Part shown: positions 42,001-51,000 of the stretch, piece by piece
Layout of the letters: each line of letters starts with the position of its first letter
Numbering within the stretch: the stretch's first letter is position 1
Assembly: GCA_965279515.1 (NCBI GenBank)
Contig: CBDIID010000003.1
Span: 4,160,001-4,224,000 of the forward strand
Source of the DNA: Turneriella sp.
Lineage (GTDB): Bacteria; Spirochaetota; Leptospiria; Turneriellales; Turneriellaceae
Length of the DNA stretch: 64,000 nucleotides
Direction of reading: 5' to 3'
Program-made: the position numbers

Positions 42001-45000
42001 GCATATCTTTTTTGAGTTTGAACTCTTCGCCGGCTTTGCCCTTTTTGTCGATGATCTGCTGTTCGAGCTCGCGGCTCAGGGTGCCGGAACCCAGGTCGAA
42101 AACAAAATCTTTATTGACTTCGCCCGATGGGGCATCGTCGATCCAGATTTCGAAATCGACGGTGAGTTTATCGCTACGCTCGGCCTGTGCCCCTTCACTG
42201 TCTTCGAAGGTGGCAAAACGCAGCAGGCGTTCTTTGATTTCTGCTTCGACATCGCCGTCGTCGATCGCGGGAATATTGCGCGTCAGCTGTGCAACTTTGA
42301 GTTTACCGATTTTTACAAACGGAAACAGGTCGAGTTTTACGGCGAAAGACATCTTATCGCCTTTCTCCTGGACGTCTTCGATACGTACGAGGCGGAACAC
42401 GCGCTCTTCAATTTTCTTTTCGACGTCGCTGAGATGGTGGTCGACGAGCGCAAACAGTGTTTCGAGGCGGATATCCGAGGCATATTTCTGGCGGATCATA
42501 TGCACGGGAGCTTTGCCCTTGCGGAAACCTTTGATTTCGACCTGCGCGCCGACTTTTTTCAGCGCCTGTTCTTCGGCGGGTTTTAATTCTTCGGAATTTA
42601 CGGTGATGTCTGCCTTGACCCGGGTTTCGGACTCACGGCTGATGGAAATGGATGGCATTCCGGCAAAAACGGGATTTTAGACACCCCGTCAACGAGTGCG
42701 AAGCCTGCGCGAACCGGCTTTTCATTGACATTGGAATGGGAGCTTTACCTGTAACGGGATGTTCCTGCTGAAACATCTGTTGCTCTTTGCCATCCTCGCA
42801 AACACAGGTTTTGCCGCCGAAAAAGTCGTCCGCGTGGTCTATCTTGTCTCCGCCGACCGTGAGACCGATGCGGCTTATGCCGCCGGCGCTGAAAATGCCA
42901 TCCGCAGCATCCGTGAGTGGTATAAAAAGCAGATGGGCGGTTACACTTTCAACCTGCATGATCCGGTGGTCGAGGTGGTGAAATCGGGTAAACCGGCCGC
43001 GTATTTTTATACGAACCCCCGGCCTTCGCACAAGGATAACTGGGGATTCGACAACACGCTCGAAGAGGCGAATCGCCTCCTGGGAGTCAGGCATAACGAT
43101 CCCAATACTGTCTGGGTGATCTATTCCGATGGCCCGGGCAATTCGGGCCGCGGCGGCGGGGGGGTCTGTATTATGCCCGAAGACGATCTTCTGGGCCTCA
43201 CAGGCCGGCATCCGACGCAGAAAGATATCAACCGCTGGATCGCAGGCCTGGGACATGAGCTCGGCCATGCGCTGGGTCTGCCGCATCCGAAAGATATGAA
43301 AAAGCATGCGGATGCCATCATGGCGAGCGGCATCTACGGCAAATATCCCGACCAAACGTATCTCACCGAAGAAGACAAGGCGCTCTTGCGGCAGAGTCCG
43401 TTCTTTTTCGACGCGGCGGGAAATCCCGTTGCGGGAAAAAACCAGACGCTTGCTGTTTTTAGTTATGGAACCGGCCGCTTCACGCGCAGCCAGAATTCCC
43501 TGACGCACAAAATCGCCTGGCAAGAGATCAACCCCGAAGGCGAGAGTTTTCGTTTTGACGAAGAAAAAGCCGACGCGCAGTTCTATTACCTGCGCGCCGT
43601 CGACCGCAAGATCTGGATTAAGATCCCGCTGGCGGGCGGGCCGGGTTCTCTTTCCGTTGACGGCAGGGTTTGGCGCGCCTTCCAGAATATGACCGTGCAG
43701 AAATAGCATGCGGGTTTTGCGGCGCATCCTCACCGCTCCGCTCGTCTTCATTGCCGCGGTTATTATCCTGCTCGAAGACTGGCTGTGGGATGACCTGCAG
43801 CGCCTCGCCGCATGGTTTGGCCGCCTGCCGGTTTTCAGGCAACTTGAGGCGCTGATTGTGCGTCTGCCGCCGGCGGCGGCGTTGGGTTTTTTTATCCTGC
43901 CTTCGCTGGTGCTGATTCCCGTTAAGTTTTTGGCGCTCTATTTCATCTCGCGCGGCCAGGCGCTGCTGGGACTCGCGACTATTGTCGCCGCAAAGATTGC
44001 CGGTACGGCGCTTGTCGCGCGGCTTTTCAAGCTCACCAAGCCGAAATTACTCACTTTTGGCTGGTTTGCCTGGGCGTACGGACATATCACAGAATTCAAA
44101 AGGCGGATCTATAACGTTATTCAATCCTCGGCTATTTATAAGCTGGTGCGTGATCGTGCGCACCGGTTACGCCTTTGGGTCAAGAGATGGAATGCAAGGC
44201 GAAAAAGCTGGTTCAGGCGCCGTTTCCGCGCCGCGAGAAAACTCATGCGACAACGGCGGGAGAAGTCGCGTTTAAAGTGACACGGCCCTCCATTCCCTTA
44301 CCATAAAAACAAAAGTTCCGCTTTACTGGATATATTTGTCTTTTATTTTGTGGTATGACAGCCTCGAATGGCCTGGAACGGGAAATCAATGCCACGGTGG
44401 AGAAATTTGCGGCGGAACCCGACAATCTTATTCTTATCCTCCATGCAATCCAGAACGCCCACGGCTACGTGCCGCGGGAGTCGGCGCTTTTGCTTTCCGA
44501 ACGCCTGGCAATTCCGCTCGCGCGCATCTATGAAGTGCTGACGTTCTATCATTATTTCCGCACTGCGCCGCCGGGCGAACATACGATCGTGGTTTGCCAT
44601 GGTACGAGCTGCTGGCTTGCCGGTTCAAGCAAAGTGCTCGATGAGGCGCAACAATATGCTCAGGCGCATCCCGAAACGAAAGTTGAACAGGTTCGCTGTG
44701 TCGGCTGTTGTGGCCTGGCACCGCTGGCGTTTGCGGACAAGAAAATTCACACTCACCTCGATGATAAAAAAACCAGCGCGATGCTGAAGCAAATGATCAG
44801 GGCGGATGTATGACGATACCCGCCGGCGAAATCCGCGTCGCCATGGATTCGGGTGGTATCGCCGCCGGCGCCGCTGCCGTGTTCGCTGAGCTTACAGAAC
44901 TTGCAAAAGATTACCCACAACTCAAGGTTGTGTCCGTGGGCACCCCCGGTATGTGTTACGCCGATCCGCAGGCGGAGATTGTCCTCGCCGGGCGGCCGCG

Positions 45001-48000: not shown

Positions 48001-51000
48001 AAAGAAACAAAAGTTGTTATTGGCGGTGAAGAAATCCGCATTGCCGTGGCACACGGGTTAGGCCATGTCGGCGAAGTATTGGACCGGGTGCGTAAGGCAA
48101 AGGCAGAAGGTAAGCCCATGCCCTACCATTTTATCGAAGTCATGGCGTGTCCCGGCGGCTGTATTGGCGGGGGCGGCCAGCCCTATGGCGTCACGGACGA
48201 AATCCGCAAAAAACGCATGCAGGGGCTCTTTAGCGAGGACCGCGACAAGGCGGTGCGTTGTTCACACGATAATCCCGAGGTGCAACAGGTCTACGCTGAG
48301 TTTCTTGAAAAGCCGCTGTCGGAAAAAGCGCACAAGCTTCTGCACACGACCTACCACGCGCGGCCCGTATATCAAAAGTGAAGCTAACGATTGCCGCACC
48401 GCGCTCACTTGCGGCAGCGCCGCTTCTGTTATTGTCACAGGAAAAACCTGGACTCTGTTCGGTTTCCTTCTTTACTGATCACGATGAGGCGCTTGCCGAA
48501 CTTGCAGCCGGAGAAATAGATATTCTCTGCAGCGGTTATAGCGAGTGCGATCGCGTTACGACTGCGCTTAAACCCCGGCGTGCGCTGACATTTGTGTGGG
48601 GATTGTCGGCGCTTATGGTGCGCGACGCGGGGACTAAAAATTTAGACGACCTGTCGCAGGCACTTACTGCTGTCGCGGGCGCAGCGCTACTTTTGCCCTT
48701 TGCCGGCAGCCCGCTCGATCTTCAGGTCAGGGCATTGCTCGGCCGCCTGTTTCGTGGACAAAATCTTCCACTGACAAACGCCCCGCTGCCGCAAACCATG
48801 CAGGGTTTTATGCACGAACAGGTCTTCGCAGCAGTTATGCCCGAGCCCATGGCGACGCTGCTTGAAAGCAGTGGCAAAGCGCACAGGCTGTGCGATGTTG
48901 CAGACCTGCATGAGCGGGTGACAGGCGGGCGCTGCTCGCCGCAAGTCTCATTATTTCTCCGCGAAGACAAGCGACTCTCAGAAGAGTTTCTTTCTGCCTT
49001 TGAGCAGGCGATCCAGCTTATGCCCGCATTGAATCCGGGCCAGTGCGCGCAAATTGCCGGTAAGCTGGATATTCCTTTGGCTGTATTTGCGCATGCGCTA
49101 CCGCATGTGCTCTTTGGCTTACCGGCCGAAAAAGAGGTGCACCGGCGCGAAACTATTTACGCCGAATTACTTTTAACCGGCCATACCTCTACATGAGCTC
49201 ATAAAGCCAGTGTTCGAGCCGGAATTTCACTTTGCTGAAATCCGGGGTTTCACGAAAAACCAGCCTGACTTCGGGATTACTTTGGTGCGCGCCGGGTACG
49301 AGCGCGACCTCGCTCGTATGGTCCTCTTCCATGAGAATGCGTAAATGCTTGTCCCAACCCGTTCTTTCCATCCAATCTTCAATCGCTTCGGAAAGAGCTG
49401 TCGCAGCGGACGGGTCGTTGCCGCGGATGCGGATGACGCCCACAAGGTTTGTAAGGTTTAAGTCGGTCTGAGCCGTTTGCAGGGTGGTTGCTTCCATAAT
49501 AACATAGATGACGCAAAGCTGTGAATTTTGTTTTATTTTTTTTACACAAATTTCCGGAATCGGGCTTTACGGCCTAAAAAGCCCCGGGGTGCCGTAACGC
49601 CCATGCTGATGACTGCCGAAGAAGAAGCGCGAGCGCCTGTAAAGCATGACGATCGTCTGTTTGCGGATGGCCTGCCCGCGCTGGTTTCTGCCGTCGTACA
49701 GCGTACCTGGGCCGAACCCTTTATGCTCGCGCGCCGTATTTTCGGCGACCGGGTAGAGGCTGCCCTTGAGGGTGGCGCGCGCTTTGCCGGCAAGTTAGCA
49801 GGACGACTGTCGAAGCCCGCATTCGCCGCGCTGAAAAATCCCGGCGAGCACGTGCTCGAAGACACGCTCAAGGCGACGCGCCTTGCTGAAAACTTTACCG
49901 GCATCTATGGTCAGGACTATTATCTCAATGAAAAAAAGATCGTGCGCCGTATTCATACCTGCCCGTTCCGCGAAAGGGCGGGGGCCAGGGTGCTCTGCCA
50001 TATCGGCGAAGCTGCCGGGCAGGAACTCTTTGCAGAGCTTGTACCCGGAATCCGCCATAAAGTCCATGTGACGATGGCGCGCGGCCACCAGTTTTGCGAA
50101 TATAGCTACGAGACGGACTAAATTGTTTCCCAAGTTTTTTAAAATCCTGATTTCCGGCATCCGCGCCAAGCTCGCGCTCTTTACAGGTAGCCTCATTACC
50201 CTGACGATCCTGATTCTCAGCTGGACCACGGTCAACCAGCAGACGCAGATTCTTACCGAGAGTTACGAGAAGCAGGCGGCGATTTCGAAAAAATATATTT
50301 CACTTTTGGTTGTCGAACTCAATAACATCGCGCGTAACCTGATCCAGATTGAGGAGTTCCGCCGCCAGATCAGCGAGCAACAGGCGGCGCTGCAGGTTTA
50401 CCGGACGACAAAAACCGTTGAAGAAGAAAAGAAGATCAACCTCGGGCTATTTAAGACCAACCTTTTCGGTGCAATGGGCAAGAAAAAGGTCAGTTTCATT
50501 GTCGATACCTATTATTCGCGGTATCTGAATATCAATGATCTCCAGCAATTGGAGATGCGCGTGCGCCAGCAGATCGGCAACGACATTGGCAAACCCCTGT
50601 CGCAATTCGACTGGCTGACGCTGCAAGGCCTCGCGCGCAAGCTTGTCGGGGTCGAAGACAACAAGATTCTTATCAAAGAGAAAACCAAGCTCGATGCCAA
50701 GATCGCGGCCTTGCTTATTCCCTCGCGGAAAAAAATTATCGAAGATACGGGACTCGAACAAAAACTCTTCCGCATCCAGACATTTCCGGCAACCGATCTT
50801 GCGGCTGCGGAAAAACTCGAGTCTTCATTCGACACCAATCTTCTCAGTAAAGAAAGCCCGCTGTCGGTTATGACAGACAACCAGGTTCTCGAACAGAGTC
50901 TGAGGAAAATTTTTCCGATTATGACGCAGGCGCCGCAGAGCGATATGACACCGCATGCCACAGCCGTGCAGGATCATGGTCTCGAGGTTCAGGCACTCTA

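Follow-up and report, generated by a model that had tools for sequence, protein, structure and literature searches.

The window, a 64,000-nucleotide stretch of contig CBDIID010000003.1 from a Turneriella sp. genome (hereafter the source genome), carries hydC, hydB and hydA as co-oriented open reading frames that overlap by 4 nt (hydC/hydB) and 13 nt (hydB/hydA), followed by a fourth cistron that overlaps the hydA stop by 4 nt and is translationally coupled to it (Table 1). A preliminary description had reported an intact HydABC operon with all three H-cluster motifs; we confirmed its coordinates, both internal overlaps and the score of HydA on NF040763 (776.9 bits; cut-off 765), and HydA also exceeds the cut-off of TIGR02512 (493.1 versus 405.95 bits). 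The operon had been counted as three genes, leaving out the coupled fourth.

Table 1 Features of the hydrogenase locus
Feature	Position	Strand	Basis or remark
190-aa membrane protein, system membership uncertain	43708..44280	+	directly 5' of hydC
hydC, NuoE-like [2Fe-2S] subunit, 152 aa	44355..44813	+	PF01257, 118 bits
hydB, FMN/NADH subunit, 610 aa	44810..46642	+	PF01512 and PF10589
hydA, group A [FeFe]-hydrogenase catalytic subunit, 583 aa	46630..48381	+	NF040763, TIGR02512
H-cluster motif TSCCP, residue 299 (proton-transfer Cys and cluster ligand)	47524..47538	+	sequence; proton-transfer Cys invariant 41/41
H-cluster motif MPCTAKK, residue 355	47692..47712	+	sequence; invariant 41/41
H-cluster motif EVMACPGGC, residue 503, bridging Cys included	48136..48162	+	sequence; invariant 41/41
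Fourth cistron, 272-aa class II substrate-binding-fold protein (NMT1/SsuA/PqqT-like), candidate cofactor-binding protein	48378..49196	+	Atlas, Foldseek

The 190-aa membrane protein matched no Pfam or NCBIfam family and is found 3' of hydA in six relatives. A different membrane protein, of 191 aa and likewise without a Pfam family, follows hydA in four relatives and is located elsewhere in the source genome. We set aside a 197-aa reading frame at 49528-50121 (MetOD1, E 0.23) because it precedes an adenylate cyclase gene in 7/7 loci. An Rfam scan of 16 loci returned tRNAs only, with no flavin or other riboswitch; promoter-like sites occurred at chance level (5 observed versus 3.6 ± 1.8), and terminator-like sites exceeded those in shuffled sequences (21 versus 9.9).

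Anatomy of the hydrogenase

HydA contains both 4Fe-4S motifs and aligned over its full length with T. kivui 8A6T, A. woodii 7Q4V and CpI. The Met and Lys of MPCTAKK contact the 2Fe centre in CpI, in which the functional roles of the pocket and proton-path residues are known; we verified the CpI residue numbering on the HydA–CpI alignment. Fifteen such residues are invariant in 41/41 HydA sequences, compared with 72 invariant columns among the 290 of the H domain overall, and the invariance of the proton path and the CN/CO pocket holds down to 61% HydA identity. The Ser232 equivalent is Ser in 36 of the 41 and Ala in the other 5. Strong purifying selection acts on hydA (dN/dS 0.04-0.08, lower than hemB and tig), and hydC gave values of 0.08-0.19 against six relatives. 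Judged from these sequences, HydA looks like a functional enzyme.

HydB stops directly after its N3-type [4Fe-4S] domain and lacks the C-terminal 2[4Fe-4S] ferredoxin domain, so that its alignment reaches residue 528 of 599 in A. woodii HydB and 554 of 626 in T. maritima HydB; the truncation is identical in 30/30 complete HydB compared. The C-terminal B3/B4 clusters that mark the bifurcating type are thus absent. Because HydB has no ferredoxin domain, the enzyme is probably an NAD(H)-linked hydrogenase that uses NADH only, and it is more likely to be non-bifurcating than Hnd-type. The preliminary description had called the operon HydABC/Hnd-type. HydB retains AFM and GGPSG; of the residues considered by Losey 2020 (A232, M234, F367 and GGPSG), A232, M234 and GGPSG are present, and the T. 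maritima 367 position is Tyr in the main Turneriellaceae clade and Phe in Opitutales. The signature of the non-bifurcating clade (T/S232, K/S/A234, no GGPSG) is seen only in the separate HydB of genome G018 (TFK). Given that A232, M234 and GGPSG are kept, HydB looks by its residues like a truncated bifurcating-type subunit and falls outside the non-bifurcating NADH-dependent clade.

Maturase genes and the spread of the HydA clade

We found no maturase gene, in agreement with the preliminary description. HydG had zero matches in the source genome at E<=10, and HydE, HydF and HydG were each over cut-off in 0/34 genomes of the order. The best HydF match among these (99 bits) was confined to the GTPase part, and a HydF motif search found none; the best HydE match in the source genome (59.8 bits) was rejected as BioB (353 bits on bioB), as had been stated before. 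Among 23 radical SAM matches in the source genome, the 20 proteins classed included no orphan in the BioB/ThiH/HydE/HydG branch. Searches of this genome for HydG or ThiH, for HypB/D/E/F and for a [NiFe] large subunit found none. Canonical HydE/HydF/HydG maturation is not encoded in the source genome. That maturases were left unassembled or are too divergent for detection is very improbable and already largely refuted, even though most genomes are metagenome-assembled and the Opitutales genomes come without completeness figures: the same models detect all three maturases in G271, G036, G039 and controls, real HydE, HydF and HydG from relatives used as queries matched only BioB and generic GTPases, and maturases are also absent from assemblies of few contigs, namely G000 (99.99% complete, 3 contigs), G021 (2 contigs), G030 (1 contig) and G274 (one 5.96-Mb contig).

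NF040763 is over cut-off in 12/34 genomes of the order, in four genera, with G026 additionally at 665 bits, as reported earlier. The trait is not confined to Turneriellaceae: the same HydA clade (support 100/99 in an IQ-TREE tree of 34 of the 82 rows used with FastTree) occurs in 29/251 Opitutales genomes, and in 28 of these 29 none of the three maturases is present. Across hydA-clade genomes maturases are absent in 41/42, whereas the next ring of relatives has at least one maturase in 26/27; all such genome counts include non-independent kin. Each of seven Opitutales genomes retains two HydA-clade enzymes, and hydA is absent from 4/13 congeners of the source genome. The HydA of G018 falls in a different lineage, indicating that Turneriellaceae hold two hydA acquisitions. 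We found no enzyme gene common to the hyd neighbourhoods of Turneriellaceae and Opitutales.

Transport genes that accompany hydA

In Opitutales, a hydrogenase-linked subclade of EamA permeases (support 99) occurs in 26/251 genomes, all of them hydA-positive and none with HydG (0/26); conversely, the HydG-positive Opitutales have no EamA match (0/4). Nineteen of the 26 genes lie within 2.6 kb of a hydA and 23 adjoin a gene for a TonB-dependent receptor, as at L183, where the order is hydA, TM1266, permease, receptor. These receptors belong to two unrelated families and stand next to three HydA lineages. Across genomes, the EamA subclade shows the pattern of a transporter in place of maturase genes. 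Turneriellaceae have no EamA homologue (0/20), and no close homologue of the receptor was found in the source genome.

The fourth cistron of the source genome is predicted to have the class II binding-protein fold of NitT/TauT (NMT1-like) importers: Atlas placed the protein at 0.96 to NMT1/THI5-like clusters, and its model (pLDDT 92.7) gave Foldseek matches to 3HN0, TauA, PqqT and SsuA. By sequence, a search of the PDB with the binding-protein profile returned only a weak SsuA match and spurious repeat-protein matches. The protein has no signal peptide or hydrophobic leader, retains the subfamily residues H35, G53 and P112, and evolves fastest of the four operon genes (dN/dS 0.21-0.28, with dS near saturation). 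In 8 Turneriella genomes the signal-less gene comes next after hydA (truncated at a contig end in one and interrupted by an N gap in another); an apparent HydA–binding protein fusion in G033 (855-aa frame) was an N-gap artefact. The binding-protein family is present in 13/13 hydA-positive and 0/7 hydA-negative Turneriellaceae. Five of the 13 have a full ABC importer of exported binding protein, permease and ATPase, which consists of a lipoprotein with a permease–ATPase pair in G022, G029, G015 and G019 and immediately follows the unrelated hydA in G018. No permease partner was found in the signal-less genomes examined (0/6, source genome included), and the ABC-pair site syntenic with G022 and G029 is a 72-nt gap in the source genome.

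Elsewhere the ABC family has a mixed pattern as a replacement for maturase genes. Its genes adjoin hyd genes in G425, G432, G321 and G689, none with HydG over cut-off, and it also occurs in hyd operons of genomes with HydG and HydF (4/5 in genus g46) and in HydG-positive G643. An expectation set beforehand failed: the maturase-less, hydA-positive G053, G081, G098 and G148 had no member of the binding-protein subfamily, and the last three had no EamA match either. Taken together, genes for transport proteins go with the hydrogenase in both lineages, superseding the statement that there was no candidate replacement gene.

Origin of the H-cluster and comparison with known systems

We propose, with a little less than even confidence, that this maturase-less lineage obtains a preformed [2Fe] cofactor by salvage. 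More broadly, and just as tentatively, bacteria of at least two phyla may be H-cluster auxotrophs with active [FeFe]-hydrogenases, each group having recruited its own dedicated transporters to import the complete di-iron carbonyl-cyanide cofactor from other microbes. Such a lineage would have given up HydE, HydF and HydG and would rely on an external supply of the di-iron centre, or of a late precursor for which all three maturases are dispensable. Host Fe-S machinery would supply apo-HydA with [4Fe-4S]H, as established for other hosts; a [2Fe] complex released by maturase-bearing anaerobes would then be captured by a dedicated uptake system, whose substrate we infer from gene association, comprising a TonB-dependent receptor and EamA permease in Opitutales and a His-containing NitT/TauT-type ABC importer in spirochaetes. 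To our knowledge, no natural release of the di-iron cofactor is known. The cofactor would insert into apo-HydA without maturases, as the synthetic [2Fe] complex does when added to E. coli cultures containing apo-HydA1 (PMC6282530). NADH might then be reoxidised to H2 at low H2 pressure under oxygen limitation, or the reverse, as the anatomy of HydB suggests. In the source genome and seven congeners, the cytoplasmic signal-less binding protein could trap or store cofactor that has come in without a permease of its own, which is the weakest step. Against salvage are the co-occurrence of the ABC family with HydEFG and the four maturase-less genomes without a detected binding protein and, in the source genome, the loss of the signal peptide and permease, together with the lack of an EamA homologue and of a close receptor homologue there and the obligately aerobic life described for T. 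parva (PMC3746428). O. terrae is reportedly capable of H2 production (PMC4288041, citing Chin et al.); if this was a pure culture with a HydA-clade enzyme, an internal route would be needed, which would argue against salvage.

The preliminary description had proposed maturation independent of HydEFG. Such a route is supported by the absence of maturases and an enzyme that appears functional, but the evidence favours import over unrecognised biosynthesis. Internal synthesis by unknown HydEFG-independent chemistry, with the linked transporters meeting only a general demand for iron, flavin or a sulfur compound, is an unlikely reading that nevertheless fits several observations. The EamA and NMT1 families include the riboflavin transporters RibN and RibY, the ABC family accompanies HydEFG elsewhere, and a few radical SAM proteins here lie outside assigned classes (L350, L354, L357, L358). 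In addition, an alternative archaeal pathway has been inferred by Greening et al. 2024, whose paper also cites H2-producing Giardia and Entamoeba without maturases (PMC11216029). However, a general supply leaves the mutual exclusion of the EamA subclade and HydG unexplained, machinery that makes CO and CN (HydG, ThiH, Hyp proteins) was not found in the source genome, and neither a riboswitch at the scanned loci nor a shared enzyme gene in the two hyd neighbourhoods points to such a pathway.

It is more doubtful still that HydABC functions with no 2Fe centre, [4Fe-4S]H then being the end point of an NADH-linked electron conduit or redox sensor. This would explain the absence of all cofactor genes and suit an aerobic host, T. 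parva being described as obligately aerobic (PMC3746428), and earlier authors deemed the R. rubrum enzymes inactive or otherwise employed (PMC4967309). The preliminary description had named a [4Fe-4S]-only enzyme as the sober alternative, and the invariant pocket and proton path weaken it, as does the retention of two such enzymes in seven Opitutales genomes; it also leaves the transporter linkage unexplained. Equally doubtful is that salvage is real in Opitutales and the ABC-bearing Turneriellaceae while the uptake of the source sub-lineage has decayed, leaving the operon a stranded relic that is being lost. The missing signal peptide and permease, the 72-nt gap, the fast-evolving binding protein and the four congeners without hydA are consistent with decay, whereas hydA is more constrained than its housekeeping neighbours in exactly these genomes, and an intact signal-less gene remains coupled to hydA in 8 genomes and has kept its subfamily residues.

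The question of how the H-cluster is acquired without HydE, HydF and HydG has until now centred on uncultured archaea and protists. The present case, in which the hydrogenase is the sole one found in the genome, extends it to bacteria, in lineages of which some members are in culture. Relatives that have maturases can be compared with relatives that lack them, and specific candidate proteins could be expressed and then assayed with the synthetic cofactor that laboratories routinely use. If salvage is true, microbial communities would share the H-cluster as they share B12 or PQQ, and this would explain many of the bacterial, archaeal and protist hydrogenases that lack maturases; H2 metabolism would depend on cofactor cross-feeding, genome-based predictions of H2 makers would change, and a natural cofactor transporter could be useful for whole-cell hydrogenase biotechnology.

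The enzyme shares with bifurcating HydABC (T. maritima 7P5H, A. woodii 7Q4V, T. kivui 8A6T) and HndABCD the HydA domain set, H-cluster residues, Nqo1-like HydB core and HydC; it differs from them in lacking the C-terminal ferredoxin domain of HydB and the maturases, and in its aerobic host and substrate-binding-fold fourth gene. As described for the non-bifurcating, NADH-dependent Hyd1ABC of S. wolfei, it is a trimeric HydABC with Tyr at the T. maritima 367 position and a HydB without B3/B4 ferredoxin-type clusters (Losey et al. 2020, PMC7311640; Zheng and Huang 2024, PMC11406978). HydB here, however, keeps the bifurcating-type A232, M234 and GGPSG, and S. wolfei, unlike Turneriella sp., has its own HydEFG.

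The proposed uptake resembles the salvage of PQQ (PqqU receptor, PqqT binding protein) and cobalamin (BtuB, BtuFCD) in that an outer-membrane receptor and an inner-membrane transporter are encoded next to the gene of an apo-enzyme. The best structural matches of the 272-aa protein include PqqT, and the Opitutales receptors match PqqU and BtuB models weakly; all scores are far under family cut-offs, and the proposed cargo here is an organometallic Fe-CO-CN complex, for which our literature searches found no description of a transporter. Nor did they turn up an earlier account of salvage or of a link to transporters, with subscription papers, including R. rubrum reviews, mostly outside their reach. 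In whole-cell artificial maturation, external [Fe2(adt)(CO)4(CN)2]2- activates apo-HydA in living cells without HydE, HydF or HydG; as described, this is a laboratory procedure using micromolar doses and no dedicated transporter, to which salvage would be the natural counterpart (PMC6282530, PMC9400101).

An intact-motif HydA without hydEFG is likewise in print for R. rubrum, archaea, Giardia and Entamoeba (PMC4967309, PMC11216029), and the Turneriella enzyme is therefore not, as had been claimed, the first bacterial case, given the R. rubrum [FeFe]-hydrogenases (PMC4967309). Those papers, in the text available, propose inactivity or unknown synthesis rather than uptake, and the main text of the latter makes no mention of scavenging or a transporter. 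The present case differs from them in its two-phylum clade, its matched maturase-positive relatives and the named transport genes that track the enzyme.

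The hydCBA operon and the search for maturases

The three overlapping hydCBA frames have the coordinates and overlaps that the preliminary description gave them, and their HydA is, as stated there, a group A [FeFe]-hydrogenase (NF040763, 776.9 bits against a cut-off of 765) that aligns over its full length with HydA of known structure from T. kivui, A. woodii and C. pasteurianum.

Features of the hydrogenase locus (window coordinates, forward strand)
Feature	Position	Description	Basis
hydC	44355-44813	overlaps hydB by 4 nt	ORF
hydB	44810-46642	overlaps hydA by 13 nt	ORF
hydA	46630-48381		ORF; NF040763 and TIGR02512 passed
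fourth cistron	48378-49196	272 aa; start within hydA stop (GTGA)	Atlas and structure model

The reported absence of HydE, HydF and HydG was also confirmed: none is over its cut-off in any of the 34 genomes of the order, and the same models do respond to the two controls, T. maritima and B. thetaiotaomicron. When the genuine HydE, HydF and HydG of relatives served as queries, nothing but BioB and generic GTPases matched in the window genome, which also lacks the HydF Cys–His motif. Of its 23 matches to the radical SAM model, 20 were classed, and among these only BioB and MqnC fall in the BioB/ThiH/HydE/HydG neighbourhood. Because this genome encodes none of the maturases, no [NiFe] large subunit (nor do the hydA-positive relatives G021 and G030) and no HypB, HypD, HypE or HypF, no established supply of CO and CN bound to Fe was identified.

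Elsewhere in the genome, two Der/EngA-type GTPase domains occupy two overlapping frames of 187 and 286 aa (contig C3, 1590858–1592223); the counterpart in relatives is one frame of ~450 aa, and the split probably reflects either a frameshift in this essential gene or an indel introduced during assembly. The 38-kb contig C1 carries an identical 247-aa QueE-like radical SAM frame at 1934–2674 and 25408–26148; the 23.5-kb spacing of the two copies points to a plasmid or prophage that is duplicated or over-assembled.

HydB ends at position 528 of the 599 in aligned A. woodii HydB, an end point shared by all 30 complete HydB sequences listed. The B3 and B4 clusters are missing from it, as they are from the non-bifurcating S. 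wolfei HydB, of which their loss is a mark in the accessible text of PMC11406978. Judged by the residues that Losey et al. (PMC7311640) use as criteria, A232, M234 and GGPSG are of the bifurcating type and Y367 is not. We read this HydB as a shortened form that probably couples NAD(H) directly to H2.

A HydA clade shared with Opitutales

The closest HydA relatives outside Turneriellaceae are 64–69% identical and are labelled Opitutales, other Verrucomicrobiota or Omnitrophota. Among 251 genomes of Opitutales, the order of the Opitutaceae MAG G035 (90% completeness was the requested filter), 29 encode HydA of the Turneriellaceae type, four encode HydG and one, G271, encodes both; it alone of the 29 has HydF and HydE over cut-off. 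Two group A enzymes are present in seven of the 29. HydA from Turneriellaceae groups with that from Opitutales in a single clade (support 100/99 in a 34-row tree and 99 in an 82-row tree), and both trees place outside it the HydA of G018, a Turneriellaceae genome. Maturases occur in 1 of the 42 clade genomes, whereas 26 of the 27 next-ring genomes have at least one (22 with HydG over cut-off, one with a partial HydG and three with HydF or HydE; G053 has none).

This is not the first bacterial case: the clade extends to Opitutales, and R. rubrum hydrogenases without maturase genes are already in print (PMC4967309). The T. parva enzyme is itself listed in PMC6085437, and the available part of its main text does not mention maturases.

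The G271 genes (contig C13, 20318–23968) are the sole hydE-hydG-hydF cluster among the sampled hydA-positive Opitutales, with one TAA stop flagged in each of the HydE and HydG matches. In several Opitutales, as at L335 and L337 (loci of G181 and G240), the second hydrogenase's HydB exceeds 1000 aa, apparently with a fused extra redox module, and permease and receptor genes accompany this enzyme.

Uptake-type genes that accompany hydA

In Opitutales, an EamA/DMT permease and a TonB-dependent receptor lie 3′ of hydCBA; the receptors belong to two families unrelated to each other. Permease matches occur in 43 of the 251 genomes. In a tree that excluded three short or split matches, a general clade contains every placed sequence from hydA-negative genomes, and a second clade has 26 genome-derived members, each from a hydA-positive genome. 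These genomes are 25 of the 29 and, in addition, G169, whose hydA is a fragment at a contig end. HydG is absent from all 26, and the four HydG-positive Opitutales have no permease match. By coordinates, 19 of the 26 permeases lie within 2.6 kb of hydA (in five, this hydA is the second, 44–51% identical enzyme), and the receptor adjoins 23. At locus L183 both genes come after TM1266 (94.3 bits, cut-off 60.8), which at L074 lies upstream of hydG. On metagenome contigs, the hydrogenase-linked permease subclade adjoins a HydA lineage related to that of G018. None of the 20 Turneriellaceae genomes has the permease.

The fourth cistron's product has no match in Pfam or NCBIfam; Atlas groups it with NMT1/THI5-like binding proteins, and its structure model (pLDDT 92.7) matches 3HN0, TauA, PqqT and SsuA. 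The gene follows hydA in eight genomes (the window genome, G021, G026, G027, G028, G030, G032 and G033), and all eight copies lack a hydrophobic leader. The other five hydA-positive Turneriellaceae have a lipoprotein form and a transporter. In G022, G029, G015 and G019 the lipoprotein gene is paired, away from hydA, with a fused permease-ATPase; in G018 binding protein, permease and ATPase come directly after its unrelated hydA. The hydrogenase of G018 (L001/L034) entered the family separately, in a second acquisition, and comprises a non-bifurcating, TFK-type HydB of 393 aa, with the complete ABC importer after it.

The binding-protein subfamily is thus found in 13 of 13 hydA-positive and 0 of 7 hydA-negative Turneriellaceae, which as kin are not independent (hydA-negative G020 is only 54% complete); a generic relative in hydA-negative G025 (38 bits) lies outside it. 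The profile was built from hydA-positive genomes; four copies were nonetheless newly detected, at 120–149 bits. At E ≤ 1e-30 the subfamily forms a discrete set of 77 clusters, marked by H35 (52 of 58) and by G53 and P112 (58 of 58), all kept in the window protein. In a search of 401 Spirochaetota genomes, hyd genes stand within the extracted sequence at 9 of the 20 best-scoring loci. Among genomes with the ABC family, HydG is over cut-off in G384, G350, G374, G336 and G643 and in none of G425, G432, G321, G689 and G403.

One member of the family (L315, in G392) lies ~3 kb from genes for a [NiFe]-hydrogenase, a hint that Fe–CO–CN chemistry in a wider sense may be what the family serves. In four Turneriella, hydA or the binding-protein gene is followed by the gene of a His-rich membrane protein of 191 aa (L038, 6464–7039) that belongs to no known family; the homologue in the window genome (C3, 78511–79068; 43% identical) is unlinked to the hyd locus. 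Downstream in the window (49528–52810), a protein of 197 aa has a CPF..C..C pattern and a weak MetOD1 match (E 0.23). In all seven Turneriella loci compared it stands directly 5′ of a HAMP adenylate cyclase, and it is a possible ligand-sensing partner of the cyclase.

Proposed cofactor salvage and its alternatives

Three unrelated kinds of uptake-type genes track hydA, and one kind excludes HydG. In the accessible parts of PMC6282530 and PMC9400101, a synthetic 2Fe complex given to E. coli cultures matures apo-HydA1 without maturases. As no other cargo would free the cell from all three maturases, the transporters would carry either the 2Fe centre or a late precursor. Salvage of the preformed cofactor is the reading we tentatively favour, at a little under an even chance. 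The case against it is substantial. The ABC family and HydEFG occur together in five genomes; producers may also salvage, as with B12. A pre-set test of salvage found no binding protein in genomes G053, G081, G098 and G148. The window genome has neither a permease partner nor a close receptor homologue, which leaves its signal-less protein no part but that of an internal carrier or of a remnant. Further counter-evidence is that T. parva was characterized as obligately aerobic (PMC3746428) and that O. terrae can reportedly produce H2 (PMC4288041); the permease profile has its second-best match in the DMT protein P0149 of O. terrae.

Synthesis of the 2Fe centre by an unrecognized internal route, as first proposed for this operon, is rather unlikely. 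The hydrogenase looks alive from its coding sequence: against seven congeners, dN/dS is 0.04–0.08 for hydA and higher, mostly 0.08–0.15, for hemB and tig, rough figures because dS exceeds 1. That the operon is a relic in the window genome's sub-lineage is improbable, and a role as an apo-enzyme equally so. The 41 HydA compared, 12 from Turneriellaceae and 29 from Opitutales and all from maturase-less genomes, agree at 15 positions that belong to the proton path and the 2Fe pocket (CpI A230, P231, E279, E282, R286, C299, S319, S323, P324, Q325, M353, K358, F417, V423 and M497), compared with 72 invariant columns among 290 over the whole H-domain; S232 is replaced by Ala in five sequences. That the absence of maturases is an artefact is very improbable indeed.

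The enzyme family and its maturase-less state are already known. Greening et al. (PMC11216029) proposed an alternative synthesis and described an uncharacterized membrane protein, hyd6TM, beside archaeal hydA; the accessible text does not suggest uptake. In the literature searched, which is short of most subscription journals, we found no paper on a transporter link or on H-cluster salvage. Compared with the known family and state, the case for salvage is far more novel, and it is open to direct testing.
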